Made by a program: the position numbers and the translations under genes. A stretch of DNA of 64,000 nt from Candidatus Iainarchaeum sp. Its GTDB lineage: Archaea; Iainarchaeota; Iainarchaeia; Iainarchaeales; JAZDEL01. Of this stretch, positions 230 through 51,711 are shown one piece after another. Every line of letters starts with the position of its first letter. Within the stretch, counting starts at the first letter, position 1. The DNA is taken from assembly GCA_043808785.1 (NCBI GenBank), contig JAZDEL010000006.1:41264-105263 (forward strand). The letters are read 5' to 3'. A model generated the notes under the pieces. That model saw only the letters and a list, made by a program, of their open reading frames with translations, had not been told where the DNA came from and searched no databases.

Positions 230-604
230 CCCACTTTGGAGCAGTTATTCCACTCAGGTATGCCCTTACAGGTGGCGGCAACTTCGAGCGCAAGCTAAAC
301 TTTCCCAAGTCCACGTTCCGCGGCTTTGTCATGAATTTCCAGAATCTGGACCGCCGAAATCTCGGGCCAAGTTTCGGCTTTTTGCTGGCCTGCCGAACGT
401 TCCGGGCACCCCACGATGGCTTTTTCCTCATCACTGCCAACCACAAAAGTAATGTGTCGCTTGCAATATATATTGCTGCCGTTTTGCAGCCCAGGGGCGG
501 GAATGCGCCCCTTATGCCCGAACTTGGGTTGCCCGGGCAAAATGCAAAACCCGCAAAAAACTCACGAATTTAAGGCTGTTGTTGCAGTTTATATTAAAGA
601 GACT

Positions 605-14042: not shown

Positions 14043-14184
14043 TGGGAAGAGCGGGATTTGAACCCGCGACACCACGGTTTCTGCTCCTTTCGCAAAACCT
14101 GGAATCTTCAGCTGCACATGGGCAGAGCGTGGAAAACTCCCCTCAACGCCCATCGTGTGCTCTCCCAGGCTGAGCTACCTTCCC
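14043..14184 (-). tRNA. tRNA-Phe(GAA)-like gene, 142 nt, probably with two introns
   Basis: 5' half GGGAAGGTAGCTCAGCCTGGGAGAGCACACG and 3' half CCGTGGTGTCGCGGGTTCAAATCCCGCTCTTCCCA are 68 nt apart. Removing a 41-nt segment after position 30 and a 27-nt segment after position 38 leaves G+CTGAAGA as the anticodon loop and a 74-nt cloverleaf. The anticodon assignment is an inference. Confidence 0.6.
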
Positions 14185-14222: not shown

Positions 14223-14858
14223 CTATTCCGTCGCAGCCATGGCCCGCGCTAGTTTATAGGGGTTTGAAAAGCCGATTTCGGAAATCCATTTTCGCAGGTT
14301 TGCCTTCCCGTTTAGTGGAACCTTATATGCGGTTCGGACTGATGTTTTTGATTTGTAAGCCCAAATTTTTGCAACATTGAATCCGGCAACGCTTAATAGT
14401 TCCTTCAACTGTTCCGCAAGAGCGCGGCTCGTAGTGGTTATCTCAATAGAAGGGTATTTCGGCGAGCCCGGTTTGTCGGCCACGAAAACGGAGCCGTCCG
14501 TGTCCACGATGCCCCGGATTGCGTGCTTTGCCGACTCCCAATCGGCTTCGATTTCGGCGGGAATTTTGGCCTTAGCGCACTTGCCTTCATGGAAAGGCAA
14601 CCTGAATGTAGTCGTCAGGCGTTCCACGATCGGCTTAGAGTCAAATTTAATTCTGACCGCACGTTCCCTGAATTTAGGCTTAACCACCCGCCCCCATGCG
14701 GAATAAATTAGGCGGCTCAGATTTTCAAAATACTGCGCATCGGTTATTGGATTTCCCGTAAAGCCGATTATGTATTTCCTGTTGCGTTTGTAAATGTGCC
14801 CGTCCCCGAGGTAGGCGCCGATTAGTTCGCATTCTTCGGGAGAAATAGTTTCAGCCAT
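14223..14858 (-). CDS. LAGLIDADG homing endonuclease, double-motif, free-standing
   Basis: Two LAGLIDADG motifs, LIGAYLGDGHI and IRGIVDTDGSV. 211 aa, between two intron-containing tRNA genes. Confidence 0.8.
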   Translation of the reverse strand: MAETISPEECELIGAYLGDGHIYKRNRKYIIGFTGNPITDAQYFENLSRLIYSAWGRVVKPKFRERAVRIKFDSKPIVERLTTTFRLPFHEGKCAKAKIPAEIEADWESAKHAIRGIVDTDGSVFVADKPGSPKYPSIEITTTSRALAEQLKELLSVAGFNVAKIWAYKSKTSVRTAYKVPLNGKANLRKWISEIGFSNPYKLARAMAATE

Positions 14859-20315: not shown

Positions 20316-20402
20316 AGCGGGGTAGGGCAGCCTGGAGTGCCCGTCGGGCTCATATTCCATGGGGAAACCCGAAGGTCGAAGGTTCAAATCCTTCCCCCGC
20401 TA
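20316..20402 (+). tRNA. initiator tRNA-Met(CAU) with a canonical 12-nt intron (37/38)
   Basis: AGCGGGG...CCCCGCT-A with an A1:U72 pair, GGG/CCC at the base of the anticodon stem, CTCATA|TTCCATGGGGAA|A loop, and T-arm GAAGGTTCAAATCCTTC. Confidence 0.85.
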
Positions 20403-20408
20403 TGTTTA

Positions 20409-20441
20409 CTTTCGCCCCTTTTAAGCGAAAGGCTTGTTTTA
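20409..20441 (+). terminator. hairpin (CTTTCGC...GCGAAAG) followed by a T-rich tract directly after the tRNA-iMet 3' end
   Basis: Inverted repeat plus TTGTTTTA. Confidence 0.35.
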
Positions 20442-20540
20442 AGGCACGCACTTGGCTCCTGCGAGGCGGGCGGCTTGCTATGCACAGGGAGGGGGCTAAA
20501 TTCGCGTACGCACTTCCGGCAAGGCGGGGCAAACCCACCT

Positions 20541-20750
20541 TTTTCACTCACACACTTTTTGGGCCTGCCAGCGCAAAGCCTGATGCGTGCACTCACTTGC
20601 CGGCAAGCTAACCCGCAGCATTGCTTACTCTCGCTCACTTATTGGCGCACTTGGCCAAAAGAGGCTTAAAATCAACTCACTTTTCACTTAAGGCGCGCAA
20701 GGTTACTTCTGCGGGCCTGTTTTTAGGCGAAAAATCACTCACTTTTTGCA
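20541..20750 (+). repeat. five or six dispersed direct copies of CACTCAC(T)T spaced 30-70 nt downstream of tRNA-iMet
   Basis: Copies at about 20545, 20590, 20634, 20666, 20675 and 20737. Confidence 0.5.
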
Positions 20751-20840
20751 ACGGTTTTGCACTGTTTTTGGGCTTTTTTGGTTTAAATGGCTTGAAATAC
20801 GGCAATTGACTATAAAATGGCAGTAATTAATGGTAATTAC

Positions 20841-20892
20841 CGTAAATAATTTAGGTAAATACAGTCATTATAGTAAATAATTTAAGTAGATA
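20841..20892 (+). repeat. two about 21-nt AT-rich direct repeats (GTAAATAATTTAGGTAAATAC / AGTAAATAATTTAAGTAGATAG)
   Basis: 17/20 identity, 30 nt apart, in a locally AT-rich patch just upstream of ORF 20894. Confidence 0.5.
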
Positions 20893-20893
20893 G

Positions 20894-21361
20894 GTGCAAC
20901 TAGATAGCGTTATGCTCAAAGGATTTGTGCGCGGAATAATGGGCGCGCTGCTGAAAGTGGCAAACTGGGCCAGCACAGAGGGCAAGGCACCTGCTGAAGA
21001 GACTATTTATGAGCGCCAGAAGGGCGAACCTGCTTCCGAAGAGGTGCACAGCATCTGGGATTACCTGGAGTTTGCGGAAAACAGCCAGGCATTCCACCTT
21101 GTGGGAGTTGTGGGGTTTGAGGAATGGGTGGATATGGCGGAGATAAAGAGGAGGATAGCGGAGATTTACAAAATCGAGTATAAGAACGACCGCAGCCTTT
21201 ATCCATACATAAAGACGCTTACTGACGCGGGCCTGTTTGAAACAACGAGTGCGGGGGGCAGGAGGAAGTGGAGGAAGCGCGACCTTGTGATTAAGCTCAA
21301 AGGGAGCATCAAAAAAGAGGCTTTGGTGCGGCAGGCTGAAAAGGCACAAAGGAGGGAATAG
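20894..21361 (+). CDS. hypothetical protein
   Basis: 155-aa ORF downstream of AT-rich direct repeats. Confidence 0.4.
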   Translation: MQLDSVMLKGFVRGIMGALLKVANWASTEGKAPAEETIYERQKGEPASEEVHSIWDYLEFAENSQAFHLVGVVGFEEWVDMAEIKRRIAEIYKIEYKNDRSLYPYIKTLTDAGLFETTSAGGRRKWRKRDLVIKLKGSIKKEALVRQAEKAQRRE

Positions 21362-21940
21362 ATGCCTGCAAGCGGCATGGAACGGCAACCAAAAATAGGG
21401 GCGAAATCACGTGGCTTCCCGGCAGATTCTGAAGCAATAACGCGAAAGCGCAAGCCAAAACAAGCAGCTGGCAGGCTACAGGGGCAGTCAGGCGTGATAG
21501 AAAGAGTAGAAAGCAGCTATGGCCTGCCAAACGAAACAATAAGGCGGCTGCAGAACCTGCTGTTCAAGCGGGAACGAATTCCTGGGGGGTGTGTAAAAAA
21601 GGTCAGGCTGCTCCGCCGTTACTTCCACATAGGGCAGCCCGGCCAGGGTTCGCATTTCAGCAGGCTGCTGCCAGGAACCGGGGTTTGGGTGACGAACAGC
21701 AAGGGGCGGAAAACTGAGAATTATTTAGGGGTTATGGGGAAGGGGAACACCCATGTTGCGGCGCTCCGTCGCAAAGAGCCGAGCGGAGAGTGGGTTAAGA
21801 CTGGGCCCAAAACGTTTGAAATTGATGAGTTTTCCCCGACAGACAATATGGCCGAATCGTATGTTACTAGCCAGCCCGGGCTTTATGCTTGGGTCGCAGG
21901 AATTAAGGTCGGCCCGCGCTGGCTCGGCAGGCTTGTTTGA
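21362..21940 (+). CDS. hypothetical protein
   Basis: 192-aa ORF abutting the previous one. Basic, no motifs. Confidence 0.3.
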   Translation: MPASGMERQPKIGAKSRGFPADSEAITRKRKPKQAAGRLQGQSGVIERVESSYGLPNETIRRLQNLLFKRERIPGGCVKKVRLLRRYFHIGQPGQGSHFSRLLPGTGVWVTNSKGRKTENYLGVMGKGNTHVAALRRKEPSGEWVKTGPKTFEIDEFSPTDNMAESYVTSQPGLYAWVAGIKVGPRWLGRLV

Positions 21941-22033
21941 GAATAAAACAGCACTTCTACATAACTATGCAGGCGGCACCCTAGTTTCGTTGCTCCCTTA
22001 GAATTACGGCTTAAAGGGGCTGAAAATTAGGGC

Positions 22034-22642
22034 TTACCCCTTCATTGCCCTATACATCTTGTAGAATTCCGCAAGGCGCGGGGACGAGGAATAAGACTCC
22101 TTGAACCAGCCGCCGTTCACTACCTTGTCGGCGCGCTCCACAAGCAGTTTCTTGTACTGGGCATCGACATTCTGCCCTGCAGCGACCGCCTTTGCAATTG
22201 CCTGCATCTCGGAGTGCAATGATTCGGGAGCGCCGGATTTTGAAGTAACATGCTGGCGCTCGAGCAGGGCCTCAAGCGAGGAAACAACCTCCTTATCGGA
22301 GAGGGTTTTTTCATCCATGTAATAAACCGCTTTCCAGTCCCCCTTGCCCCTCCAGAAGTGGCTCGGGTTCTTGCCTGTTTTGAAGAAGGTTGTCAGGCTG
22401 TTGAAGCCGCCCTGAGGGATAATTACGCAGTTCTTTCCCGGGCGCATATAGGGCACGCCTGAAAGCACGCCGTTCCTGTGGTAATGGTAGGTTTTGCCGT
22501 TGGATTTGGTGACGTTTTGAGTATAGCCGTAGATTGCGCGGAAGAGCTTCTGGTATGTATATGAGGAGTGCTTCACGGAATCGGGAAGAATGAACTTATA
22601 TTGAATGAAATAACCTTTCAGTGCCACCAAGCAGACCCCCAC
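22034..22642 (-). CDS. hypothetical protein with an HUH-like (HYH) motif
   Basis: 202-aa ORF with GKTYHYHRNG and downstream YYMDEK. Very weak resemblance to rolling-circle Rep motifs. Confidence 0.4.
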   Translation of the reverse strand: MGVCLVALKGYFIQYKFILPDSVKHSSYTYQKLFRAIYGYTQNVTKSNGKTYHYHRNGVLSGVPYMRPGKNCVIIPQGGFNSLTTFFKTGKNPSHFWRGKGDWKAVYYMDEKTLSDKEVVSSLEALLERQHVTSKSGAPESLHSEMQAIAKAVAAGQNVDAQYKKLLVERADKVVNGGWFKESYSSSPRLAEFYKMYRAMKG

Positions 22643-22890
22643 ACTTCCACTACTAACATAACTCTATCAAACTGAACTTGCTTATGTATAAGGATAATAC
22701 ATAAATACTATTATTTGGCACTAAACCTTTTTAAACATATTTTGCGCGCGGGCGCGCGCAGGGAGCAATTGAAAACGCGTTTTTTGCGGTTGGCCGCGAA
22801 GGGAGCAACAAAATGCCGGGGGTTGCCTGCATGGTTTGCGCCGGATTTGAAAGAATCAGTAGCCGCGCCCGCGAAATGTACGGGCGCGTG

Positions 22891-23452
22891 CCAATAACCC
22901 TGCGAGTTTGTTTGGCGGGCGAAAATATCCGCGTCGCGCCCGCCCAAAAACGCGAAAACCTCAGTAACCCTGCGGACCCGGCTCTTCAGTAACCCTGCCG
23001 CCCGATACAAGGATTATGTCTTTTGTTGCCTTGACTGTCTTGTATGGTATGCTCTTTTCGCTTATGATTTTCTTCGCTTCCTGCTTTGTCTTTGCCCTGA
23101 GTGCCTCGGTTGTTATTGTTTCTACCCTGCCTTTCTCAAGGTTTATGACCAGGTCGAAGACCTTGCCCTTGTATTCGGCGCCTGTAGTGTAGATGTCCAT
23201 GCCGAAGAGTTTAGATAATCTCATTGTCATTTTTTCCACCCCAAATTTTGGATCCAAAATTATTGGATTATTCTTGTTTATAATAAGCCCGCAGAAATAT
23301 ATAAATGTTTTGGTGCGTTCGGGGATATTTAATAGATGCGGTTTGAGGTGCTTTTGGCAGGGTTCTGCGGCGGTTATACATAACCCTCGCGCAAAGGGGG
23401 CGATGTTTTTTAAGTTCCTGCGCAAGGGAGTAAGGAATATACATAACCCTTC
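22891..23452 (+). repeat. dispersed short repeats (C)AGTAACCCTGC x3 and TATACATAACCCT x2 flanking the PRC-barrel gene
   Basis: 22891-22906, 22962-22975, 22987-23000, 23375-23391, 23437-23452. Confidence 0.5.
22961..23230 (-). CDS. PRC-barrel domain protein
   Basis: MTMRLSKLFGMDIYTTGAEYKGKVFDLVINLEKGRVETI... Start trimmed to ATG at 23230. Confidence 0.55.
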   Translation of the reverse strand: MTMRLSKLFGMDIYTTGAEYKGKVFDLVINLEKGRVETITTEALRAKTKQEAKKIISEKSIPYKTVKATKDIILVSGGRVTEEPGPQGY

Positions 23453-23586
23453 AAACGCCGAAACGCGTGGTTTTTTGGGGTTTGGTGCCCGAATTAGGCA
23501 AACCCCGCAGGAGGGGGCGCGGTGCCAAAGTCCCTGCTGCCAAAGCAATGCCGCAGTAGTGGAACCATGGGGGCGGCAACAGCAGC

Positions 23587-23922
23587 TCACCCTTCTTTGT
23601 ATTTGCGTCTGTCTCCCTTGTAAATGCTGTGTCGCCTGCCTTGGTATCTAACTGGCTTTTTCTTCGGGGCGGGTTTGACTATTTTGAGTGAAGGCGTTTT
23701 ACGTATCTTTCCAGTTGGTCTAAAAGCCAAGCCAGTAGGGCTGTGACCAGCGCGACCAAACAATCCGGCTCGTTCGAAGGGGCGCCACCGTCGTTTCCCA
23801 CCGCTCCTTGTTCCAAACCCCGGAAGGTCTGGCGGACCTTCAATCAGCCAGTTCCCCTTCTTCGCGCGTTCAATATTTTTTTTGAGCAAATTCACATTTG
23901 ACATGCGTTTCTTGTTAATCAT
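23587..23922 (-). CDS. questionable small basic ORF (the region may instead be a non-coding RNA)
   Basis: 111 aa, very K/R-rich with low-complexity composition. Confidence 0.2.
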   Translation of the reverse strand: MINKKRMSNVNLLKKNIERAKKGNWLIEGPPDLPGFGTRSGGKRRWRPFERAGLFGRAGHSPTGLAFRPTGKIRKTPSLKIVKPAPKKKPVRYQGRRHSIYKGDRRKYKEG

Positions 23923-24006
23923 TCAACCCCCCCTGCAGTTGCCGCCATAATTGACGCTTTTTTAATATATAACTCTTTCCTTCACAATTTGCATTTTGCA
24001 GGCCGC

Positions 24007-25083
24007 TTACAGCGAATCCAGCGGGCTTTTGACCTTCTTCAGTTCATCCGTCGAAACCTGCGTATAAATCTGCGTTGTGTTCAGGTTGCTGTGCCCTAAA
24101 AGCTCCTGGATTTTCCTTATGTTTTCCCCTGCCTCGAGGAGGTGCGTTGCGAAGGAGTGCCGCAGCGTGTGCGGCGTTACGTGCCTCTTTATTTCCGCTT
24201 TTTCCGCGGCTTCGCGGATTATCCTCTGCATTGTGTCTGAGGAGAGCTGCTTGCCGTTCTTCTTTGAAAAGAGGAACTCGCTCTGCACCTTTTTCTTTTT
24301 GAGGTATTTTTTTATGCCCGAAGTCCAGTCTTTTGAAAGTATAACGACGCGGTCCTTGTTTCCTTTGCCCCCTTTTACGCGCGCAATGCCCTCGTGCAGG
24401 TCTGCGTCCGCGGTGCGCATTTTTACGAGTTCGCTTACGCGCAGGCCTGAGGAGTAAAGGAGCTCTACCATCAGCCTGTTCCTGCCGTGCTTTGTTGCCT
24501 TGATCAGCGCCCTTACCTCGTCCTGTGAAAGCACTGTTGGCAGTTTTTTCGCCTTTTTCGGGGATTTTATCTCATCGAGGATTTTCAGGCGCAGGAAGTT
24601 GTGGAAGAAGAATTTAAGGGCGGCGTGAACAAGCGCAAGGGTCGCGTTCGTGGAGTTTCTCTCTGATTTCATGTGTGCAAGGAATGCCACAACATCCTCG
24701 CGCGCGCAGGACTGTGCCGGCTTGCTGCTGTGCTCGAGAAAGGCCTTTGCGTACATGGAGTACATTTCAAGCGTGCGCTTGCTGTAGCCTGTAACCGTTA
24801 ATTCCTGCTGGAAGCGCCTGAGGAGTTCGGCGTTCTCAGGGAGCAGAACTTTCGCTGTAGGTGATATTGGGGTTGGGTGTGCTGCGGGAGAAGTGGCACT
24901 AACCGCGGCTGCTGGTGTTCTGGCGCCTTCTAACCCCGCTACGCCTCCTTCCTCTTTTGCGGCATAATCATTTGCCATGCTACCATATTGGTTGAAGTCG
25001 TTAATATTCGTTTCCGCACCGTGCGTAACTCGGCAGAGCGCACTGCAATTAGGGCAAACACAAACCTTTTTTAATTTTCCCAA
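24007..25083 (-). CDS. tyrosine recombinase/integrase, XerA/XerC-like, with an N-terminal extension
   Basis: C-terminal catalytic region with R...HxxR...Y (RHSFATHLLEAGENIRKIQELLGHSNLNTTQIYTQV). The N-terminal extension carries CxxC...C. Confidence 0.85.
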   Translation of the reverse strand: MGKLKKVCVCPNCSALCRVTHGAETNINDFNQYGSMANDYAAKEEGGVAGLEGARTPAAAVSATSPAAHPTPISPTAKVLLPENAELLRRFQQELTVTGYSKRTLEMYSMYAKAFLEHSSKPAQSCAREDVVAFLAHMKSERNSTNATLALVHAALKFFFHNFLRLKILDEIKSPKKAKKLPTVLSQDEVRALIKATKHGRNRLMVELLYSSGLRVSELVKMRTADADLHEGIARVKGGKGNKDRVVILSKDWTSGIKKYLKKKKVQSEFLFSKKNGKQLSSDTMQRIIREAAEKAEIKRHVTPHTLRHSFATHLLEAGENIRKIQELLGHSNLNTTQIYTQVSTDELKKVKSPLDSL

Positions 25084-27547: not shown

Positions 27548-27682
27548 TTAGGCGACTTTCCCAAACAAAAGTGCGTTAACTTCTACATAACGGGTACAGG
27601 GAGCGAAGGATTTTGCTGCTCCCTTTGAAGCCGGAAAATGCGGGCAGCGGGCGTTTGCGGCATTCCTGCCGCGGGGCGGGCG

Positions 27683-32167: not shown

Positions 32168-32328
32168 GTGCGTGCAGGAATAGAGAAATAGCGGTTCTTC
32201 TACATAACTAACTGCGTGCGGATGCCATTTTGCCTTAATTTTAGCCCTTCGCATGCGGGTTGTGCACGCTTTGGCCGTGCTGCACCGCCGCGGGAAGTAT
32301 TATAAGCATTTTTCCGGAAAACCGATTT

Positions 32329-35330: not shown

Positions 35331-35702
35331 TTGGTTTTGCCTGGAAAAATGGGCGGGAGCAACAGGATTAGTAGTAAGCAGATTCGGGATGTAATAAAAC
35401 AGAAAAAAGCGGGCTACATAGGCAAGCCGGCAACCGTCGATATATTGGAACTCCATTACGCAAACTCCATGTTGAAGAGAATTAATATGGCGAAGACTCT
35501 TGGCGGCTTGAGAGGGGTGAGGCAGGAGTTGAAGATGCACACAGAACATACGAACCTTGGGCATGGAAGGGGGCTTGTTATTTCCCCCATGAGCCACGGT
35601 GAAACCTCGGACCTTGTGACTGCCGGCGTATGGCGGCACAAAGAACTCCTAGGGCTTTTGGAGAAACGGCTGGCTGAAAGGGAGAAGGAGTTGGGGCGCT
35701 GA
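35331..35702 (+). CDS. hypothetical protein
   Basis: 123-aa ORF. Confidence 0.35.
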   Translation: MVLPGKMGGSNRISSKQIRDVIKQKKAGYIGKPATVDILELHYANSMLKRINMAKTLGGLRGVRQELKMHTEHTNLGHGRGLVISPMSHGETSDLVTAGVWRHKELLGLLEKRLAEREKELGR

Positions 35703-35883
35703 GGCTAAGCCTTAAACATGCTTTGCAGTAGGAACGGACCACTTAATAGAGAGGGCAAAAAAGGAAACTATGCATACATCCAAAAATGCGCGCCCGAAGA
35801 GTATTTAATCAGACAATAGATGCGTCGCACCGGAAATGCACCCTCCAAACATTTAAATCCGTCAATCGCCTATTTTTTACTGA

Positions 35884-36507
35884 ATGATATCTGACGAATA
35901 CATAATGGGCTTTGTCGAGGGCGAGGGCTGCTTCAGCATAACGCTGCAGCGTTACTTTGACCGCAAGCCCAGGGCAACTGGCCGCAGGAACAACCGCAAG
36001 CACAAGGCGTTTCCGATACGGTTGGCTCCAAGCTTCAGGATTACGATAAGGGAGAAAGACAGGCGCGTGCTTGATGAGATTAAGGAAAAGTTCGGTTTTG
36101 GCTCCATTTATTTGCAAAGGAGACAGGGGGAAAATTGCCAGGATACTTGCCAATATGTTGTAGAAACCTTTGGGGATTTGTTTGTTCTGGTGGATTTCTT
36201 CTCAATGCAGACTTTTTACACTCAGAAAGGTGAGGATTTCAGAAAATGGGCCCAGGCTCTCGAGATTTTCAAATCCGGCGGGCATTTAACAAAGGAGGGC
36301 GCGCTGGAGATTTGTAGGCTCAGGGACTGCATGAACCTACGGATGAACAAAGGCAACCGTGTTTCCGAAGAGGTTAAGGCTCTCCTCGAGGAGAAACGCG
36401 AGCACATTCTGGCGCATGCAGACAAAAATCAGAGTAAACTTCTACATAATTGTGATGGGGCACTGCCCAAATCGCCGTTCCCTTTGACGCAGCAACCCAC
36501 ACCCTAA
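35884..36507 (+). CDS. LAGLIDADG-family homing endonuclease, free-standing
   Basis: YIMGFVEGEGCFSI motif (LAGLIDADG_3-like). Locally AT-richer than the surroundings. Confidence 0.65.
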   Translation: MISDEYIMGFVEGEGCFSITLQRYFDRKPRATGRRNNRKHKAFPIRLAPSFRITIREKDRRVLDEIKEKFGFGSIYLQRRQGENCQDTCQYVVETFGDLFVLVDFFSMQTFYTQKGEDFRKWAQALEIFKSGGHLTKEGALEICRLRDCMNLRMNKGNRVSEEVKALLEEKREHILAHADKNQSKLLHNCDGALPKSPFPLTQQPTP

Positions 36508-36844
36508 GCCGTTACGAACAGGAACTGCCTCAAGTTAATTTGTCGATTTCGCCTGTATTGCATCTAAAACTGTTCAAATGCCAAAAACAACCCCCTATGT
36601 TCCACTACTGTTATTCCGATATGGCATAAAATACTCCTTATTTGCCCTCAGGATGCAAGATAAACAATATTATGCTGTAAAATCCCTTCGCAAAATTTCG
36701 CAAAATTGAAAAAAACGCACATGGGTTTTGGCGGGCTTCCTTAAGGGGCTTTGGCTGGTTTGCGAAGCGGCTCTGAGGGCGCCTGAAATGGTTCTGAAGG
36801 GAGCAGCGGACTGGCTCCGGCGCCTGCATGGTTATGTAGAAGTT
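36437..36844. repeat. inverted 14-mers AACTTCTACATAAT / AACTTCTACATAAC (rc) flanking an about 380-bp AT-rich segment
   Basis: 36437-36450 (+) and 36831-36844 (rc). Members of the CTTCTACATAAC family. Confidence 0.55.
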
Positions 36845-36865
36845 AGATCCGGTTTTTGCTTAAAA

Positions 36866-37282
36866 TCAGCGCTTTTTGCGCGTGCGCATCCAGGCGCGCA
36901 TATTGAAGCGCAGGGTGTTAAAGCCACCCCTTATGCTGCGCCCAAGTTCCCTTCTGTTGAACTTCCGCACAAGCGCCTTTATTTTCTTTCCCTGCATGCC
37001 TGAAATCTCAAAAACGCCCCTTTCTTTATCGAACGCAATTTCCGCGCCCCCGGAGCGGATAAAACGCATAAATTTATCTATATCATTTGCCCTTTTTGCG
37101 CGCCCGTTCGCATACAGCACATCAGGCCTGTTTTCTTCAGGAAATATTGCGCCATAGCGCAGATAGTAAAACGGGCCGATATACTCCCTGTCGCGGTGTG
37201 CGCTCAGCCTACCACCCCTAATCCTCGGGGCTTTCTCCCGCTCTTTTGTGTTTGGCATTGCAAATAGAATGTGTTTGCACAA
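36866..37282 (-). CDS. hypothetical protein with weak GIY-YIG-like signature
   Basis: FYYLRYGAIF...VLYANGRAKRANDIDKFMRF... Confidence 0.3.
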   Translation of the reverse strand: MCKHILFAMPNTKEREKAPRIRGGRLSAHRDREYIGPFYYLRYGAIFPEENRPDVLYANGRAKRANDIDKFMRFIRSGGAEIAFDKERGVFEISGMQGKKIKALVRKFNRRELGRSIRGGFNTLRFNMRAWMRTRKKR

Positions 37283-37517
37283 ATATAATGCTTTCGGAGG
37301 AGGTATAGTTATGTATAACCTAACTACATAACCCTGCTCCCGAGCGCCGATATTTGCGCTCCCTTAAAAAAATATTTTCGCGGAGCGCTAATTGGCGCTG
37401 CCAATTGCGCCCATTTTGGCACGCAATTCGGCTTGAGCCGAATGCGCCCATTTGGCAACAGCCAAATAGGGTGAGCCAAAATAGGGCGCAAGCGCGCCCC
37501 GCAAGAAAAAGCCTTAT

Positions 37518-37880
37518 TCAGCCTTCCACAATAAGCTGCATATCCTTGGCGTATGTCCTGTCCACGAACTTCCAGTCCTTGTGGTGTTCCGTTACGCGCA
37601 TCCGCACATCCAGTTCACCCGGGTCGGCAAGCGCCTTCGGGTAAATATCGTAATAGAACCTTTTCCCCTCCCCAGGCGCAAGGCCCTCTATCCTCTCCAC
37701 CTTGCTCCTTACAATTCCGCTCTTGTCGAAAGACAGCAGCCTTGCAAGCGCAAGCTCCATGCTAACCAATTCGTTCCTGTCTCCCCTGTTCTCCACCTCA
37801 ACCGTGAGCTGAACCGGCTTTTTGTCCCTGAGCTTCAGCCTGAACGGATGAAAATGTGTCTTTATGCTCAGCATTTCCAC
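37518..37880 (-). CDS. hypothetical protein
   Basis: 120-aa ORF. Confidence 0.4.
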   Translation of the reverse strand: MEMLSIKTHFHPFRLKLRDKKPVQLTVEVENRGDRNELVSMELALARLLSFDKSGIVRSKVERIEGLAPGEGKRFYYDIYPKALADPGELDVRMRVTEHHKDWKFVDRTYAKDMQLIVEG

Positions 37881-38173
37881 ACCCCCGTTTTAAAAAATCC
37901 CCAACCGTTCCGATTTGGTTCGTTGCGGTTCGCCGCAATTTGCCGAACCCAACCACCCGCGCGGTTTGGTTTTGGTTTTCCCGATTAATATTCTTGCCGA
38001 GAGTGCTTAAAAAACAATATCTTGGTTTTTCCGCGCGCGCAAACCCCGAAAAATGCGCGCGTTTTTTGGTTTTTATTGCGGTTTCCTTTCCGCAGGCTCC
38101 CGCAAACCTTTAAATACAGGTTGCGGAATAATTAATTGGAAACGGAAAAAGTCTTTTTGCCTGCAGGAATGGT

Positions 38174-38665
38174 TTGGAGCTGCCAACAATGCCAAAATCA
38201 GAATTTCCCGAAGCCGCGCTTGTTCGCAGCGCCTTTACAATCCGCGAAATGGATTTTCCCCCCGAAATAGCAATGACAAAGCGCTCCCTCCTGCGCTGGT
38301 TTGCCCTTTCCTCGGGGTTAATTTCCGAGCGCGAATCCCGCTCCACAATCCTTGATGTGCTCGACGCCCTATTCTGCATGCAGATAACGCACGCAAAGGA
38401 GCCAACCTCCAACGAAATCCGCCTCTTCATGGACGAACGCGGAAAAAAAATCTCGGACAAGCTTCTGCGCTATCACCTGAAGCGTATGCACGATTTGGGC
38501 CTTATCCACAGGAAGCGCCTGCGTTATTCCTTTGCGCACGCGCCCAATGCTGACCGCTCCGACCTGAAAGCGGGCTTTAACCACAACATCACGCGCAAGG
38601 TTCACGCATCCCTTGCCGCAACGGAGAACGCGTTCGAAAGGCTTGGGATGAGCTATAAAAAATAA
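38174..38665 (+). CDS. winged-helix transcriptional regulator
   Basis: LRYHLKRMHDLGLIHRKRLRYSF recognition-helix/wing-like segment. Confidence 0.45.
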   Translation: MELPTMPKSEFPEAALVRSAFTIREMDFPPEIAMTKRSLLRWFALSSGLISERESRSTILDVLDALFCMQITHAKEPTSNEIRLFMDERGKKISDKLLRYHLKRMHDLGLIHRKRLRYSFAHAPNADRSDLKAGFNHNITRKVHASLAATENAFERLGMSYKK

Positions 38666-40144: not shown

Positions 40145-40996
40145 CTATTCCAGCGCAATCTCAGTTCCTATGCAGTTTTTACCCCCCAACAGGAGATACA
40201 GATTATTAGTGCCATTCAGATTAAAAACCACGGCACTTGTGCCTTTCATGTGCATTTCAAGGTTTTCCAGCTTCCCCCGCATGCCGCTGGTTACATCCGT
40301 TGCCTTTGAACCGCCAACCCCGCGCAAAACCGCGCGGAAATTCGAGTTTGTTATTTTTTTAATTATTTTCGCCCCCCCTGCGGCAATCCTGCCCGCGTTT
40401 TTGTTTTCCCCGCCAAAACCCGCCTTTGGTTCCGCTGCATACACCCCCTCGACATCGGTCCCGAAAAAAACCTTCTTTGCATGCAGTTTTTTCGCGAGGT
40501 AAGCAGCAATCGCGTCCCCGCTGACAACGCTCGCGCCGAGTTTGGAGTCGAGTACCATATCCCCATACATAATTGGCACGACAAACCCGTCCATCTTAAT
40601 CAAACCCCCGACCAAACCCGTATCGAAGCGGGTTATTTTTTTGTTTTTCTGGGTTATGCACGCGCTCGCTTGGGAAGGGAAGGCAAGCAGCCCTTCCTCG
40701 TTGAAAATTTCAACAACCTTCGCGCACAGCCTTTCCATCGAATTGTGCGTTTCCACGAAACCCTTAACCTGCTCCTTAGTGCGCACGCCGTTGTTTATTC
40801 CATATTTTTCAACAGGCACGTGCCCGAAAGGCCCCGCGCCCAAAACAATGATGAGTTTGAATTTTTTCTCAGCGGAGGCGCGCTTAATTTCCTGCGCGAT
40901 GCGCCTCACGGCATCTTCCCTTACCCTTGCTTCCCCCGAAGCCTTGTCCGTGATGACGCTTCCCCCTAATTTGGTTATGTATAAGTTAGCGCTCAT
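40145..40996 (-). CDS. isopentenyl phosphate kinase (amino-acid kinase family)
   Basis: KLGGSVITDK, LGAGPFGH, DVTSGM. Confidence 0.75.
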   Translation of the reverse strand: MSANLYITKLGGSVITDKASGEARVREDAVRRIAQEIKRASAEKKFKLIIVLGAGPFGHVPVEKYGINNGVRTKEQVKGFVETHNSMERLCAKVVEIFNEEGLLAFPSQASACITQKNKKITRFDTGLVGGLIKMDGFVVPIMYGDMVLDSKLGASVVSGDAIAAYLAKKLHAKKVFFGTDVEGVYAAEPKAGFGGENKNAGRIAAGGAKIIKKITNSNFRAVLRGVGGSKATDVTSGMRGKLENLEMHMKGTSAVVFNLNGTNNLYLLLGGKNCIGTEIALE

Positions 40997-46355: not shown

Positions 46356-46778
46356 TTACTTCACGACCCTGAACTTGTAGCCGTAGGCAATCGCCCCTTC
46401 TTTCCTCTGCTCGGAAATCTTCCTGAAAACCTTCTCCACATGTGCGCCTATCCTTACCTTTTCATTTTCGCTGTCCACGACCTGGCTTAACAGCCTCGCG
46501 CCGTTCTCAAGTTCTATTATCGCAAGGAAATAAGGCGTTTCGTGGTCGAACCCCGTGGGTCCTGTCATTACCTCCGTGTATGAAATAACCTTCCCCTTCC
46601 TCGGCATCTGCTTTGCTGAAAGCTTCCCGCGCCTCCTGCAGTTCGGGCAAACTCCCCTTGCCGGGAAGAAATCCTCGCCGCATGTGCTGCACGAATTGCC
46701 GGCAAGCGTGTAGCGCTCGGGGAACTTCCTCCAGATTAACGGCAGTGCTTCGCTCATTTCATGCACCCCCCGCAACAC
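46356..46778 (-). CDS. DUF35 OB-fold/zinc-ribbon protein (scaffold of the archaeal thiolase-HMGCS complex)
   Basis: CSTCG...CPNC zinc ribbon plus OB fold. Confidence 0.75.
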   Translation of the reverse strand: MLRGVHEMSEALPLIWRKFPERYTLAGNSCSTCGEDFFPARGVCPNCRRRGKLSAKQMPRKGKVISYTEVMTGPTGFDHETPYFLAIIELENGARLLSQVVDSENEKVRIGAHVEKVFRKISEQRKEGAIAYGYKFRVVK

Positions 46779-48045
46779 AATATGCGAATTTATTTCCCGT
46801 TAATTTCCTCTCGACAAGCCCCTCTTCAGACATCCGCAATAGAACATCGCGCACATGCCTTCCCGACCTTTTGCACGCCTTTGAAATGCCCGAAGCGGTT
46901 GCGAGAACGCCCTGCGCATTAAGATTTGTGATTGCTTTAATATAGTTCTCCGAAGCCTCGTGGCGCGGGAAAGACTCGAGCCCGTCAACATACCTGCCAA
47001 GAACATGCACGAGTTTGTTTTCCTTCCGTTCCAGGCCGAAACCGACCTTCTCGAGATATTTCCGCAGGTTCTCCCTACCGCTTATTATAAGTGTCCAATT
47101 GAGCGTAACTTCCCCGCTGCTTTTGAAATTGCGCCCCCTGACGACTATTTTTGATTTAATGCCCATGACTTCCAATGACTGCTGAACATCCGACAGCAAC
47201 TGCGGCTTTTTTGCGGCAGTTTCTTCCGCAGCGGTTGTGGGGCATATCAGAGTAATCACCCTGCAGTGATAATTATCCACAACACAGCCGTCATCGTCAA
47301 ACAGCCGTCTCAGGAGGGCTATAAGCGGCTTTCTATCGCCCGCCGCAATGAACTGCCTGGGAATTCCTAATTCGTAATTATAATTTTTGTTGCCGTCAGG
47401 AATCCCGATAGTGCCGAGGATTACGCCGATTATTTTGGGGAAAATTACGCAGGGCACGCCGCTTGTCGACCTGTGGCGTGCAAACCTGACATCGCCAAAT
47501 GTGGAAACAACCGCACCCACAAAACTATCGACCTGCTGGCGCTCGTTGTTGAAGTACCAGACGCGCATCTTGCTTTTTTCTATCCCGCCGTCGCCCAAAA
47601 CTCCGCCAACAACAAGCCCGAATTCCTCGGTCAAAATTTCGAAAGGCAGCTTCGGGTTTTTTATTTTCTCTTTTGATTTCAGGGTTTTCAATTCAATTAC
47701 TTTCTTTTCTATCTTCCGCCCGTTAATGCCAAGTTCATCCGCAGCCCTGGCCAAAAACGAAAGCGGCATGCCGCTCCTTCCGACGGAATACCGCCTTGCG
47801 GATTCGCCCCTGCCGAGCCCGAAAGCCCTTGCGATTGCGGAAAACGAGCCGTGTTTCTTCAAGAGCGCCCCGAATAGTTCCTTCCTGAACTCGGCATCCA
47901 GCGTAACGCGAATTTTGCCCGCAGGCAAATCAAAAAGGGAAATGCTCGCCATTTCATCTTCACCAGCAATAAATATGTTTTTTATCCCCTTAAATAGTTT
48001 CGGGAGAGTGCATTTCCGGTGCGAAACAGAAATTTCCGTATTCAT
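46759..48045 (-). CDS. LAGLIDADG-family protein (double-motif) with N-terminal HTH-like and C-terminal winged-helix-like extensions
   Basis: LVVGGVLGDGGI and LIALLRRLFDDDGCV motifs. Its ATG overlaps the thiolase TGA (ATGA at 48045-48042), and its stop overlaps the DUF35 start by 20 nt. Confidence 0.7.
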   Translation of the reverse strand: MNTEISVSHRKCTLPKLFKGIKNIFIAGEDEMASISLFDLPAGKIRVTLDAEFRKELFGALLKKHGSFSAIARAFGLGRGESARRYSVGRSGMPLSFLARAADELGINGRKIEKKVIELKTLKSKEKIKNPKLPFEILTEEFGLVVGGVLGDGGIEKSKMRVWYFNNERQQVDSFVGAVVSTFGDVRFARHRSTSGVPCVIFPKIIGVILGTIGIPDGNKNYNYELGIPRQFIAAGDRKPLIALLRRLFDDDGCVVDNYHCRVITLICPTTAAEETAAKKPQLLSDVQQSLEVMGIKSKIVVRGRNFKSSGEVTLNWTLIISGRENLRKYLEKVGFGLERKENKLVHVLGRYVDGLESFPRHEASENYIKAITNLNAQGVLATASGISKACKRSGRHVRDVLLRMSEEGLVERKLTGNKFAYCVAGGA

Positions 48046-49220
48046 CTTTTCCCCTCCAGTGCCTGCAAAATGTGAATCACGCATGTTGCCCCACTCCCCC
48101 CGATATTGTGCGTCAGCCCTATGTGCGCATTCTTAACCTGCCTCTTCCCCGTAACCCCCCTTACTTGCTCGCAAATCTCGATAGCCTGCTTAACGCCTGT
48201 TGCGCCGACAGGGTGCCCGCATTTAAGCCCGCCCGAGGTGTTAATCGGGATTTCACCTTTTAGTGCGGTTTTTCCGTCCTCGCTTGCTTTTCCCCCTTTG
48301 CCCTTTTTGAAGAACCCCAAATCCTCTATTGCAAGTATTTCCGCGATTGTAAAGCAGTCATGCACTTCCGCCAAATCAATATCCGAAATCTTAAGTCCCG
48401 ACTGCCTGAGCGCCTCCTGCACCGCAACCTTCGTCGCCCACAGTTCGGTAAGGCTCTTCCTGCTAGCAACGGCAAGAGTATCCGAAGCCTGCGCGCTCGC
48501 AATAATCTCGACAGGTTCCTCACACAGTTTTCTTGCCTTATCCGTCGCACACAGGATTGCCGCTGCTGCACCGTCGCTGATGGGCGAGCAATCCAGCAGT
48601 TTCAGGGGAGTTGCAACATACCCTGAATTCATCACATCCTCAATTGTAATTTCATTGTGGAATTGTGAGTGGGGGCTGTGCATGCCGTTCGCATGGTTCT
48701 TCACTGCAACAGCGGCCATCTGTTCCTCCGTTGTTTTGAACTCGTGCATATGCCTCCTTGCAAGCAGCGCATAGAGTGCGGGGAAAGTTGCGCCCTGGAA
48801 AAGCTCGGTTTCCTGGTCCCCCGCGCCCCCCAAAGCAAAGCCCGCTTCCTCGGTGCTTACCTCAGTCATCTTCTCCGCCCCGCCGACAGCAACAACATCA
48901 TACATTCCGGAAGCGATCGCGTGGTAAGCCGCCCTAAGGGCAACCCCGCCAGAAGCGCATGCAGCCTCAACACGCGTGCTCGGCGCGGGATTCAGCCCTA
49001 ACTGATCCGCAATAAGCGCCCCAATATGCTCCTGCCCTATGAACCTTCCAGAAGCCATGCATCCGCCGTAAACCGCCTCTATATCCGCCCCGCTTATGCA
49101 CGCGTCGCTTATCGCCATTATTCCCGCCTCGGCAATAAGCTCGCGGAACGACTTGCCCCAGTGCTCCCCGAATTTCGTTATGCCCGCGCCGATAACCGAA
49201 ACGCTCCTCATGCCGCGCAC
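48042..49220 (-). CDS. acetyl-CoA C-acetyltransferase (archaeal acetoacetyl-CoA thiolase)
   Basis: Thiolase Cys region CASGG, C-terminal NIGGSGATCV. Confidence 0.9.
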   Translation of the reverse strand: MRGMRSVSVIGAGITKFGEHWGKSFRELIAEAGIMAISDACISGADIEAVYGGCMASGRFIGQEHIGALIADQLGLNPAPSTRVEAACASGGVALRAAYHAIASGMYDVVAVGGAEKMTEVSTEEAGFALGGAGDQETELFQGATFPALYALLARRHMHEFKTTEEQMAAVAVKNHANGMHSPHSQFHNEITIEDVMNSGYVATPLKLLDCSPISDGAAAAILCATDKARKLCEEPVEIIASAQASDTLAVASRKSLTELWATKVAVQEALRQSGLKISDIDLAEVHDCFTIAEILAIEDLGFFKKGKGGKASEDGKTALKGEIPINTSGGLKCGHPVGATGVKQAIEICEQVRGVTGKRQVKNAHIGLTHNIGGSGATCVIHILQALEGKR

Positions 49221-50409: not shown

Positions 50410-51711
50410 TTAACCTCTCTTTTTATTCTCTTTCCTTTCCCCCGCGGGTTTTGCCGCCTTCTTTCGCAGATTGACGAGAATTTCCGCTGCGTTATCCGCG
50501 GATATCCTGCCGCATTTTGCCATTTCCCCCGCAACCTTCTCAATTTCCCCGCCTTTTGCCCCCGCTGCAACCGCAACATTCTTCGCATGCAGCCCCATGT
50601 GCCCTTTCTGTATCCCCTCCTTCACAATCGCGCGGTTTGCGGCAAATGTCTGCGCAAGCCCGACAGCGCAGCACACCTCCGCAAGCTCCTTCGCGCTTTT
50701 AATTCCCATAATTTTCAATGCAATTTTTGCAAGAGGGTGAGTTTTTGTCGCCCCCCCGACAATTCCCAAAGCGAGCGGCATTTCCATTTCCCCCGCCAAA
50801 TCCCCCGATTTGGTTATGTAGAAGTTCTGCAGTGCCCTGTATGTTCCGTCCCTCGCGGCATAGGCATGCGCCCCGGCCTCCGCAGCGCGCCAGTCATTGC
50901 CCGCAGCAATCAGCACGGCATCGATGCCGTTCATAATCCCCTTGTTGTTCGTGCACGCCCTGAAAACATCCGCCTGCGCAAGCGCGCTTGCATCCGCGAT
51001 TGCCTCAACCAATTCGCCCCCCAATTCCTCCTTTTTCCACACCGCGCACGCCTTTACGGTGCGGTGTATCGCATAATTGCTTATTATTTTAAGGCGCGCC
51101 CTGCCGCCTGCCAACCTCTCCAATTCGGGCGCAATCCTCTCGCACATGCTGTTCACGGCATTCGCGCCCATCGCATCGCCGCAGTTCACGAGGATGTGCA
51201 TAACCAGCATCTTCCCGCGCTGCGTTTCCACTTCGCGCAGCTGAATTTCCTTTGCGCCTCCCCCGAATTTCAGGAGGACAGGGTCGCAGGAATTTGCTGT
51301 TTTGAGCAGTGAGGCGGAATTTGCCGTTATCTCGCGCTCCGCCTTCCCGAAATCCTTAACCCCCACCAGCTGCACCTGCCCTATCATAATCGGTTCGCTC
51401 GCCTCCGCCTTGAACCCCCCCAAAGCGCGCGCCAATTTTGCCGCGTTGGAGGCGGCGGCAATAATGCTCGGCTCCTCGGTAACCATGGGCACAAGATAAT
51501 CCTTCCCGTTCACGCGGAAGTTCGTCGCAACCCCCATAGGCATTCCGTAAACGCTCACCGCGTTCTCCACCATCCTGTCCGCGGTCTCGAACTCCAGCCC
51601 GCCCTTCCCGAGCGCCGCAACCTCATCAGCGCCGAGCGCGGACTCGCGCTTGAGCACATCAAGCCTCTCCCCGCGCTTCAATTTGTAAAACCCGCTTATG
51701 TCAGATTTCAT
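50410..51711 (-). CDS. HMG-CoA reductase, class II (bacterial/mvaA type)
   Basis: VPMVTEEPSIIAAASNAAKLARALGGF and DAMGAN motifs. 433 aa, with no membrane domain. Confidence 0.85.
   Translation of the reverse strand: MKSDISGFYKLKRGERLDVLKRESALGADEVAALGKGGLEFETADRMVENAVSVYGMPMGVATNFRVNGKDYLVPMVTEEPSIIAAASNAAKLARALGGFKAEASEPIMIGQVQLVGVKDFGKAEREITANSASLLKTANSCDPVLLKFGGGAKEIQLREVETQRGKMLVMHILVNCGDAMGANAVNSMCERIAPELERLAGGRARLKIISNYAIHRTVKACAVWKKEELGGELVEAIADASALAQADVFRACTNNKGIMNGIDAVLIAAGNDWRAAEAGAHAYAARDGTYRALQNFYITKSGDLAGEMEMPLALGIVGGATKTHPLAKIALKIMGIKSAKELAEVCCAVGLAQTFAANRAIVKEGIQKGHMGLHAKNVAVAAGAKGGEIEKVAGEMAKCGRISADNAAEILVNLRKKAAKPAGERKENKKRG

Follow-up and report, generated by a model that had tools for sequence, protein, structure and literature searches.

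A probable replication terminus and dif region with a polar motif array and a resident homing-endonuclease gene in Candidatus Diapherotrites

Results

A conserved locus in Iainarchaeia genomes

The 64-kb stretch of Candidatus Diapherotrites (Iainarchaeia) DNA analysed here (the window) carries, at 36.4-37.35 kb, the end of a LAGLIDADG homing-endonuclease gene, a gap without conserved genes, a 28-bp site in that gap resembling the archaeal recombination site dif, and copies of a short polar motif that converge on this site from both sides (Table 1). We consider it probable that the locus is a replication terminus and dif region, and that it combines a new array of polar motifs with a homing-endonuclease cassette resident there. 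The original prediction, made from the same DNA, had described a mobile-element graveyard, in which a structure like a miniature inverted-repeat transposable element (MITE), with inverted 14-mers as its ends, lay between a LAGLIDADG gene and a GIY-YIG-like open reading frame (ORF).

The same layout was present in ~30 related genomes with GC contents of 26-53%. These relatives were seen as pieces of ~20 kb (L-numbered loci), and 24 orthologous loci were added through a scan of species-representative genomes. The gene order common to the genomes examined runs from the endonuclease gene across a 300-700-nt gene-free gap to variable small minus-strand genes, a gene for a 118-aa protein, a winged-helix gene, a tRNA deacylase gene and mevalonate genes; relatives sharing this order have endonuclease proteins of 44-72% identity. 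Those endonuclease orthologues that came with source names were labelled Candidatus Diapherotrites or Iainarchaeum, and the neighbouring genes of the window are archaeal in type (DtdA and the AcnX/UbiD/IPK mevalonate genes). Two loci (L011 and L013) have the complete Iainarchaeia-type architecture in bins labelled Chloroflexota/Chloroflexi, which is probably a binning error. The locus is thus a conserved, phylum-wide architecture with intact genes, and not the debris that a graveyard would imply. Toxin-antitoxin and other accessory genes are dense on the flanks of the dif-like site, and bacterial terminus regions are typically crowded with genes of this kind.

Table 1. Features of the locus and of its surroundings, in window positions.
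Feature	Position	Strand	Basis or remark
XerA tyrosine recombinase gene	24007-24978	-	NCBIfam recomb_XerA_Arch, PDB
dif-like site ATGCAAGATAA-ACAATA-TTATGCTGTAA, predicted XerA recombination site	36653-36680	.	11-bp inverted arms, 6-bp spacer
Left inner box CCCCC-TATG-TTCCACTAC, C-string and polar-motif-like or ORB-like core	36591-36608	+	Conserved block, 23-genome alignment
Conserved right flank AATCCCTTCGCAAAATTT...TTGAAAAAAACG, small CC-loop-GG element and A/T runs	36681-36716	.	Alignment blocks
Left converging motif copy AACTTCTACATAAT	36437-36450	+	Within LAGLIDADG ORF, encodes K-L-L-H-N
Right converging motif copy, top strand GTTATGTAGAAGTT, minus strand AACTTCTACATAAC	36831-36844	-	Inverted partner of left copy
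TCCCTT, second box of left bipartite element	36479-36484	+	Mirrors AAGGGAGC at 36797-36804
AAGGGAGC, second box of right bipartite element (GCTCCCTT on minus strand)	36797-36804	-	Mirror of left box
Back-to-back (diverging) motif pair GTTATGTAT-aacctaa-CTACATAAC (palindromic GTTATGTAtaacctaaCTACATAAC)	37308-37332	.	Sequence reading
Dispersed bipartite element CTTCTACATAAC-N27-CTCCCTT, toward dif-like site	21954-21999	+	14 nt past stop codon
Dispersed bipartite polar element, toward dif-like site	27580-27625	+	Sequence pattern
Dispersed motif copy, 30 nt past DUF1003 gene	32197-32208	+	Orthologous copy behind same gene in L001/L010
Dispersed right-arm motif copy in HMG-CoA reductase gene, toward dif-like site	50814-50824	-	Sequence pattern
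TTTAAAT TATA-box-like element, putative promoter of endonuclease cassette	35852-35858	+	26 nt 5' of ATG
LAGLIDADG_1 homing-endonuclease gene, free-standing, single-domain	35884-36507	+	207 aa; Pfam and PDB matches, orthologues
Orphan ORF, 130 aa from ATG 37258 (138 aa from TTG 37282), lineage-specific, in variable ~400-nt slot	36866-37258	-	ORF reading
Conserved 118-aa gene	37518-37874	-	tblastn identity 29-61% in 20 loci
Conserved 158-aa winged-helix DNA-binding protein gene	38189-38665	+	Pfam HTH_12 2e-5, weak Penicillinase_R

A dif-like site between converging motifs

In an alignment of 23 genomes, the most conserved block between the converging motifs was a 28-mer with the consensus ATGCRRYATAA-YCNNNN-TTATNCTGYAW. 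Its TTAT was invariant (23/23), the successive positions of ATAA held A in 21, T in 20, A in 23 and A in 17 of the 23 sequences, and the right arm, once reverse-complemented, gave the left-arm consensus. A profile built on the 28-mer found one best site per locus, always between the converging motifs, both in four held-out loci and in two loci that lack the endonuclease gene (L090 and L091). The next-best matches scored ≤7 bits, and neither the 64-kb window nor any of the ~20-kb loci contained a second such site. The dif of Pyrococcus abyssi used in XerA binding and recombination assays reads ATTGGATATAA-TCGGCC-TTATATCTAAA (PMC2958812), and 16 of its 22 arm positions, by our count, are compatible with our consensus.

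The window also encodes a recombinase, 12 kb from the dif-like site. Its product scored 289.5 bits against NCBIfam recomb_XerA_Arch (cut-off 220) and had P. abyssi XerA as its best match in the PDB (4a8e, E=1e-56), which identifies it as XerA rather than a phage integrase. We infer that this enzyme probably acts at the 28-mer.

The 28-mer is set in a loose nested palindrome. The outer layer consists of TACATAAC, the next of TCCCTT and AAGGGA, with GCCAAAA and TTTTGGC in addition, and the inner layer of C5-N4-TTCCACTAC and GTAGTGGAAGT-N-G4, which resembles the polar motif (ACTTCCACTA compared with ACTTCTACATA). In other genomes a counterpart of the left inner box stands on the right, in mirror orientation, as AGTAGTGGAAGT and then a G-string. 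The original prediction had called this gap unusually AT-rich and ORF-free. A dip in GC content is indeed there, if a modest one (the lowest 200-nt value was 0.39, at 36500-36699, against ~0.53 for the window), and the gap contains no conserved ORF, but a 63-aa ORF does exist at 36638-36829 (-), with no relative in 33 related loci.

Two further readings of these sequences were rejected. The alternation of CCCTTCG and CGAAGGG between genomes, to the right of the 28-mer, does not mark an invertible segment: it is a small variable CC-loop-GG motif, and all genomes are collinear in the alignment. Nor is the palindrome at 37308-37332 the true dif, as its TTAT and ATAA lie on the outside of the arms, the reverse of every known dif. 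Palindromes made of A/T runs are also present on the right, 20-45 nt away from the dif-like site.

A polar motif array aimed at the dif-like site

The polar motif has the consensus (A)CTT(C/A)TACATAA(C), 11-13 nt long, and its innermost, converging copies read (A)CTTCTACATAAC. These copies are the inverted 14-mers of the original prediction, and they lie exactly where it had placed them. The inverted similarity around them covers 62 nt at 66% identity (36423-36484 / 36797-36858), and in ~23 genomes they are 305-393 nt apart. Some copies are bipartite, with the form TACATAA-N29-TCCCTT (CTTCTACATAAY-N27/28-(G)CTCCCTT); the window has five of these (21954+, 27580+, 36439+, 36842- and 37321+), the CTCCCTT second box being limited to a subset of motif copies. 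The further copy predicted at about 37306-37337 also proved real, and is the palindromic back-to-back pair of Table 1. The corresponding pattern, TTATGTA-N9-TACATAA, was found +521 to +643 nt from the dif centre in ~20 of 30 genomes.

The motif is far more abundant than chance would give. With up to one mismatch, CTTCTACATAA matched the window 9 times against 0.45 expected, and TACATAAC matched 13 times against 0.51; none of 100 shuffles reached either count. The 14-mers therefore belong to an abundant family of strand-polar motifs and are not the ends of a mobile element, an outcome that the original prediction had named beforehand as speaking against its own proposal.

The left converging copy offers a test of selection on the DNA itself, since it lies inside the endonuclease ORF. 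Here the motif encodes L-(L/I/V)-H-N, and the choice of codons hardly varies among 21 orthologues: CAT for His in 21/21, AAC for Asn in 19/21 and CTA for Leu in 12/12, compared with 9% of Leu codons elsewhere in these genes. This freezing of codons within a reading frame shows that the polar motif is selected at the DNA level.

Polarity was counted, as was strand skew, in a first set of seven genomes and in a second set of 24 further loci. In the first set, TT[CA]TACATAA pointed toward the dif-like site in 20 copies and away from it in 1 on the left, and in 18 and 0 copies, respectively, on the right. In the second, T[CA]TACATAA gave 37 toward and 4 away on the left, and 57 toward and 4 away on the right, so that overall ~93% of copies were oriented toward the site. 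The polarity does not derive from base skew, because the motif contains no G, and gene orientation was a far weaker bias, with 59% of left-hand and 75% of right-hand coding bases directed at the site. The density of copies aimed at the site was 0.35 per kb at 0.5-2 kb from it, 0.23 at 2-5 kb, 0.11 at 5-10 kb, 0.17 at 10-20 kb and 0 at 20-40 kb, this last bin being covered by the window alone. Copies aimed away occurred at 0.01-0.05 per kb, which is the level of chance.

Intergenic sequence made up 18.5% of the DNA and held 65% of the motif copies. Many copies stood 1-30 nt past the stop codon of a co-oriented gene, and 60/129 followed the 3' end of such a gene. A logo of 143 dispersed copies was informative only in tt-N-TACATAAc, and a dif-like or attC-like second arm beside these copies was rejected on that ground. 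The CATAA end of the motif resembles the arms of the dif-like site, with 7/11 positions in common with each arm in the window and 8/11 compatible with the arm consensus. The motif is not a general promoter or TATA box, because the ordinary promoters of the window, judged from the upstream regions of 63 predicted genes, use TTTAWAT boxes ~25-30 nt before the ATG and not TACATAAC. A literature search that included archaeal polar motifs and motifs like the FtsK-orienting polar sequences (KOPS) found no description of the TACATAAC element. In a control set of metagenome loci carrying seryl-tRNA synthetase (80 loci, 917 kb) the motif density was 0.011 per kb; these loci share none of the neighbour genes of the window and reach a GC content of 0.69, so they probably come from unrelated organisms and are uninformative for Iainarchaeia.

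Some motif copies stand in other settings. One lies within the first codons of the isopentenyl phosphate kinase gene, directly past the stop codon of the upstream gene, and is kept in two genomes (40974-40985 (-) in the window and 13133 (-) in L001/L010; MSANLYITKLGG / ..DFYITKLGG). The ORF-poor stretch at 20403-24000, between tRNA-Met (20316-20402) and the adjacent XerA gene, contains repeated CACTCACTT-like words and small orphan genes, together with a second back-to-back TTATGTA-N9-TACATAA pair (22682-22704), a partial bipartite element (22798-22836 (-)) and two near-palindromic copies, one at 23372-23385 (GGTTATACATAACC) and one at 23440-23447.

Strand asymmetry switches at the dif-like site

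The cumulative GC skew of the window reached its maximum at 36-37 kb. The GC skew at third codon positions (top strand) was +0.19 for plus-strand genes and +0.13 for minus-strand genes on the left, and -0.07 and -0.20, respectively, on the right. As genes of either strand show the same sign on a given side, the flip is independent of gene strand. The AT skew at third positions changed as well: T was in excess on the left and A on the right. The flip had the same sense in 7/7 genomes of the first set, and left exceeded right in 19/24 of the further loci. By the usual rule that leading strands are rich in G and T, leading strands converge at the locus. The rule holds in Thermococcales, where the skew of G/T-rich oligomers is lowest at oriC and highest at dif (PMC2958812). 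Such convergence is the signature of a terminus, and replication probably ends here. No Orc1/Cdc6 family match was found among the window proteins scanned, which extend 27-36 kb to either side. A tblastn search within 10 kb in ~35 related loci also gave no Orc1/Cdc6, although this rough search is weak evidence.

A homing-endonuclease gene at the edge of the proposed dif region

The LAGLIDADG gene of the original prediction is real, if of another family than proposed. Its product, which begins with MISDEYIMGFVEGEGCF and carries YIMGFVEGEGCF, matched Pfam LAGLIDADG_1 (E=4e-16, 60.2 bits, cut-off 23.1) and not LAGLIDADG_3. In place of the suggested I-DmoI, its best relatives of solved structure were I-OnuI/I-PanMI-type halves and the single-domain proteins 5gkk and 3e54, the last of these an archaeal rRNA-intron enzyme. 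There were ~40 orthologues, at 40-72% identity. The ORF was intact in every orthologue aligned or translated, and within and beside the sequence GFVEGEG seven residues were invariant in 22 aligned orthologues (G9, V11, G13, E14, G15, C16 and F17). The protein has a conserved C-terminal tail of ~45 aa encoded by the dif-region flank, with the last ~25 codons of the ORF extending into the left flank of the dif region. The TTTAAAT box ahead of the gene has the type (TTTAWAT) and the spacing seen for other genes of the window, and is kept 5' of the orthologues in L001 and L004, which suggests that it is the promoter of the endonuclease gene. An Rfam search of the whole window at the gathering threshold returned three tRNAs only, two of them with long introns; this search and a permissive one of 35600-37600 gave no intron, intein or RNA gene around the LAGLIDADG gene.

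The gene is an optional cassette, and in this the original prediction, which had taken it for mobile DNA, was borne out. We reached L090 and L091 through homologues of the winged-helix protein (182, against 40 endonuclease homologues in the same database), and neither has an endonuclease gene within 10 kb, although the surrounding locus is kept. In these two loci the converging motifs are 344 nt (L090) and 324 nt (L091) apart, with the dif-like site between them; both retain the polar array, and L091 retains the back-to-back pair too. In the endonuclease-less allele, the left motif lies ~20 nt past the end of an unrelated gene. Because the full array persists where the endonuclease is missing, the LAGLIDADG protein is unlikely to be the reader of the motif. 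In five loci (L004, L008, L011, L019 and L029) the endonuclease start is preceded, at a distance of 117-243 nt, by another motif copy on the plus strand, so that the gene is flanked by two direct motif copies, which is also how the variable genes of the right arm are laid out. As the ORF is intact and the catalytic motif invariant, the endonuclease is presumably either still active or has acquired a role in the host, and the presence of intact orthologues at one syntenic site suggests long vertical retention or a host function.

Other LAGLIDADG genes occur in the window. A second free-standing gene at 14223-14858 (-) encodes 211 aa, matches Pfam LAGLIDADG_3 (3e-12), weakly resembles the intein endonuclease parts of RFC and helicase, and adjoins a long-intron tRNA gene (14043-14184 (-)). 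A 441-aa ORF inside the mevalonate operon (46759-48084 (-)) has a LAGLIDADG_3 domain at residues 255-348; it sits between an OB-fold gene (46356-46757) and a thiolase gene (48042-49211), which follow each other directly in the related genomes examined.

Genes to the right of the dif-like site

The first gene slot on the right holds the ORF at 36866-37282 (-) that had been described as GIY-YIG-like. It had no Pfam match at E≤1, no NCBIfam, PHROG or meaningful PDB match and no homologue in 33 related loci, which leaves the GIY-YIG label without support. Since a TATA-like box, ATTATATTT, stands 25 nt 5' of its ATG at 37258, it may be a real, lineage-specific gene. In other genomes the slot is filled by unrelated genes. 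The conserved 118-aa gene comes next, and its product had no family match in Pfam, NCBIfam or PHROG. Between it and the back-to-back motif pair, the stretch 37380-37500 contains the palindromes AATTGGC-GCT-GCCAATT and ATTTGGC-AACA-GCCAAAT and repeated GCGCCCATTT(T)GGCA; similar (A/G)TGGC repeats fill the right dif flank in L090 and L091.

With or without an endonuclease gene, the loci invariably had the winged-helix gene on the right side, at 1.5-7 kb from the dif-like site, and its product has 182 homologues at ≥47% identity. The AlphaFold model of the protein (predicted local distance difference test score, pLDDT, 90) is nearest in fold to BlaI/MecI, weakly (E~0.02) and among generic winged-helix matches. 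BlaI and MecI recognise TACA/TGTA. The protein is a lead only, as a candidate binder of elements at the locus. A motif copy lies in the divergent promoter region of its gene in about half of the genomes. An A-run/T-run palindrome, GGAAAAAG-N-CTTTTTCC (GGAAAAAG-T-CTTTTTGCC in the window), is found at 38130-38185, just 5' of its start codon, and also 5' of the gene in L004, L017, L020, L033 and L090. This palindrome may be the protein's own operator, which would argue against TACATAAC as its site.

Elsewhere in the window, 416-2566 (+) encodes a full RelA/SpoT-type protein (HD, RelA_SpoT, TGS and ACT domains), a bacterial-type stringent-response enzyme in an archaeal genome and presumably a horizontal acquisition. 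KaiC-family ATPase genes occur three times in the 64 kb, at 6994-7734 (+), 61345-62298 (+) and 62336-63466 (-).

Discussion

A model of the locus

The data above suggest a model in which 36.4-37.35 kb is a landmark of replication termination on the Candidatus Diapherotrites chromosome, and in which XerA, encoded 12 kb away, would resolve chromosome dimers at the 28-bp dif-type site at 36653-36680. Motif copies would act as arrows aimed at this site, from the top strand on the left and from the bottom strand on the right, with an innermost converging pair ~350 nt apart bracketing dif and a density that decays over ~20 kb. We predict that the motif is a protein-binding site. It could serve as a directional guide or barrier for the replication or segregation machinery, in the manner of KOPS or Ter, or else mark where the small, variable gene cassettes on both sides of dif end or recombine; the two roles would fit equally well. 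The LAGLIDADG gene would then be one such cassette, inserted directly 5' of the left innermost motif, which would account for a reading frame that runs through the motif, and the orphan ORF would be an unrelated occupant of the first variable slot on the right. Candidates for the reader of the array are the 158-aa winged-helix protein and XerA itself, the latter because the motif ends in the dif-arm bases CATAA. More tentatively, the array may be part of an undescribed system of the Iainarchaeia that organises the terminus, in which polar 11-13-bp sites, bound by protein, form a fork trap or directional guide that fixes termination and dimer resolution in an archaeon with no known FtsK/KOPS or Tus/Ter system, and may double as docking points for small cassettes, the LAGLIDADG gene among them, on either side of dif.

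Several points weigh against reading the locus as a terminus and dif region. Within single genomes the arms of the dif-like site agree at 4-9 of 11 positions, which is less symmetric than P. abyssi dif and tells against the site because a single XerA would be expected to bind both arms. Scores of the 28-mer profile were low (9-16 bits), owing to the shortness of the site, and most of the loci had served as training data for the profile. The terminus is called from a 64-kb window and ~20-kb pieces of relatives, not from whole chromosomes, and by a rule of G/T-rich leading strands that is taken over for this phylum from other lineages. The intergenic placement of most copies is unlike that of KOPS-type motifs. 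Finally, the AT-rich centre and nested inverted repeats also fit the textbook look of an archaeal origin, to which the likeness of the inner boxes to origin recognition boxes (ORBs) adds.

What else could the locus be? A replication origin (oriC), with the AT-rich centre as the unwinding element and with TACATAAC and the C-string plus TTCCACTAC boxes as ORB-like initiator sites, seems to us unlikely. It would explain inverted repeats around a centre of 36-39% GC in a genome of 53% GC, and phylum-wide synteny is usual for origins. ORB1 and ORB2 of P. furiosus have the form CCCCCC-N10-TTCCACTGGAAC (PMC1904270), and the inner boxes share with them the C/G-string, the heptamer TTCCACT and the inverted arrangement; nevertheless, the ORB-defining dyad (TTCC-N-GGAA) lacks its GGAA half here. 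The polarity of the skew is also opposite to that of known bacterial and Thermococcales origins, the site being at a summit, which in Thermococcales marks dif and not oriC (PMC2958812). Furthermore, genes point toward the site, so that most transcription would run head-on to replication, and the searches for Orc1/Cdc6 described above found none. The best-conserved central element has the 11-6-11 form of dif with ATAA/TTAT, and it is flanked by crowded accessory and toxin-antitoxin genes. Still less probable is that the motif is only a transcription-level signal (an operator, a terminator or an insulator) serving a regulon made up of small cassette genes, with a polarity that simply follows gene orientation. 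The frequent position of copies between genes and behind co-oriented 3' ends agrees with such a role, as do the GC-rich hairpin ending in CTCCCTT that follows several window copies and the copy in the winged-helix divergent promoter region. On the left arm, however, 41% of coding DNA is on the minus strand but only ~5/60 motif copies are, and the flip in motif orientation coincides with the skew switch in every genome. Dispersed copies show no conservation around them beyond the core and no T-run of archaeal-terminator type behind the motif, and the ordinary promoters of the window are of the TTTAWAT type.

We regard a structured small RNA in the conserved non-coding stretch, for which the motif would supply the promoter or a portion of the transcript itself, as very improbable. 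The conserved blocks in the gene-free gap, and a minus-strand T-run at 36710-36716 that lies ~120 nt downstream of the right motif, would suit it, but 35600-37600 gave no Rfam match even at E≤10, and RNAalifold on 16 genomes gave -2.3 kcal/mol, with pairing only between the two invariant motif copies and no compensatory changes. The mobile-element graveyard, meaning a MITE with 14-bp terminal inverted repeats among decaying LAGLIDADG and GIY-YIG genes, is hardly credible. An optional endonuclease gene, variable small genes and toxin genes on the flanks, and inverted repeats that are real all accord with it. The 380-nt interior of the supposed MITE, however, occurs once in the window, where only its ~50-nt ends recur, and it is orthologous at one syntenic place in ~30 genomes, with conserved blocks in ~25; its 'terminal repeats' occur as solo copies too, the LAGLIDADG ORF is intact with its catalytic motif invariant in all orthologues examined, and there is no GIY-YIG signal. 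A terminus and dif region remains the reading that we prefer.

Part of this picture is already known: XerA, a dif-type 28-mer at a skew summit and polar sequences together make up the archaeal Xer/dif core of Thermococcales. Four features are new: the occurrence in a DPANN lineage; a polar motif that is long, intergenic, concentrated near the site and present in converging and back-to-back pairs at fixed positions; the embedding of dif in a nested palindrome; and a LAGLIDADG gene that, across a phylum, sits beside dif with a reading frame passing through the motif. Studies of Xer/dif in archaea have dealt with Thermococcales and Sulfolobales, and to our knowledge archaea lack FtsK. The locus bears on how such cells orient the resolution of dimers or set the point at which replication terminates, and it yields a specific dif prediction for a phylum of DPANN archaea that only metagenomes have revealed. 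As a directional signal or fork barrier, the polar motif, highly polar, selected at the DNA level and conserved across genomes of 26% to 53% GC, is a much sharper candidate than the 4-mers reported to date, and a small set of linked conserved genes supplies candidates for its readers. The endonuclease gene presents a case of a homing-endonuclease gene at one chromosomal landmark across a phylum, its frame threaded through a DNA signal of the host. As a practical matter, the converging pair with the 28-mer can serve as a marker of terminus location in Iainarchaeia bins and in assembly checking.

Comparison with known systems

The closest known system is archaeal Xer/dif as described in P. abyssi and other Thermococcales (Cortez et al. 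2010, PMC2958812). Both have a single XerA-family gene that is not adjacent to its site; a site of 28 bp, in which a 6-bp spacer separates inverted 11-bp arms with ATAA/TTAT at their inner ends; and a position at a skew summit, with conserved AT-rich flanks and short polarised sequences aimed at the site. The Thermococcales polar sequences are the 4-mers GTTG and GTTC and are found genome-wide (PMC2958812), whereas the element in the window is an 11-13-mer, mostly intergenic, concentrated within ~20 kb and with fixed converging and back-to-back pairs. The window site also differs from Thermococcales dif in its less symmetric arms and in belonging to a DPANN lineage, where it is predicted from sequence.

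Bacterial termini offer two further parallels. With KOPS (GGGNAGGG) and with the SpoIIIE recognition sequences (SRS) of Bacillus, the motif shares its skewed distribution, the switch of strand at dif and a higher density near dif. KOPS, which FtsK recognises, are 8-mers rich in G and are found for the most part within genes. The window motif has no G, avoids genes, has no known FtsK to read it and falls to zero density beyond ~20 kb, a range seen in this window alone. With Tus-Ter of E. coli and with the replication terminator protein (RTP) and its Ter sites in B. subtilis, where an inverted IRI/IRII pair stands beside rtp, the locus shares long polar sites in two opposed groups at the terminus, an innermost inverted pair and, as for rtp, a small winged-helix gene conserved nearby. 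No homology to these systems was found, however, for either the sites or the protein, the winged-helix protein being nearest, weakly, to BlaI/MecI, and the sites in the window are more numerous per kb. In length, preference for intergenic DNA and local gradient the motif comes closer to Ter sites than to KOPS.

The arrangement of small genes with motif copies at their boundaries, and the CATAA end of the motif, recall the cassette platforms of Xer and integron systems, such as integrative mobile elements exploiting Xer (IMEX) at dif, the pdif modules of Acinetobacter and integron attC. In these, as here, small variable genes, each followed by a co-oriented short site, are stacked beside a recombination site, and in several genomes the endonuclease cassette has a motif copy at each end, the two being direct repeats. 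In contrast to those platforms, the window sites resemble half-sites (a CATAA end with no second arm), show no R''/R' pairing of the attC kind, and form arrays that are two-sided and mirror-symmetric. The endonuclease itself shares the LAGLIDADG_1 fold, the conserved acidic residue of the motif, a core of ~160 aa and presence/absence polymorphism at one fixed site with single-domain LAGLIDADG enzymes (the I-CreI class, archaeal I-Vdi141I of PDB 3e54, and the I-OnuI/I-PanMI halves). Unlike the LAGLIDADG enzymes encoded in introns or inteins, its gene lies outside either, and it differs from the known single-domain enzymes in its extra ~45-aa tail and in having all of its orthologues examined intact at one syntenic site.

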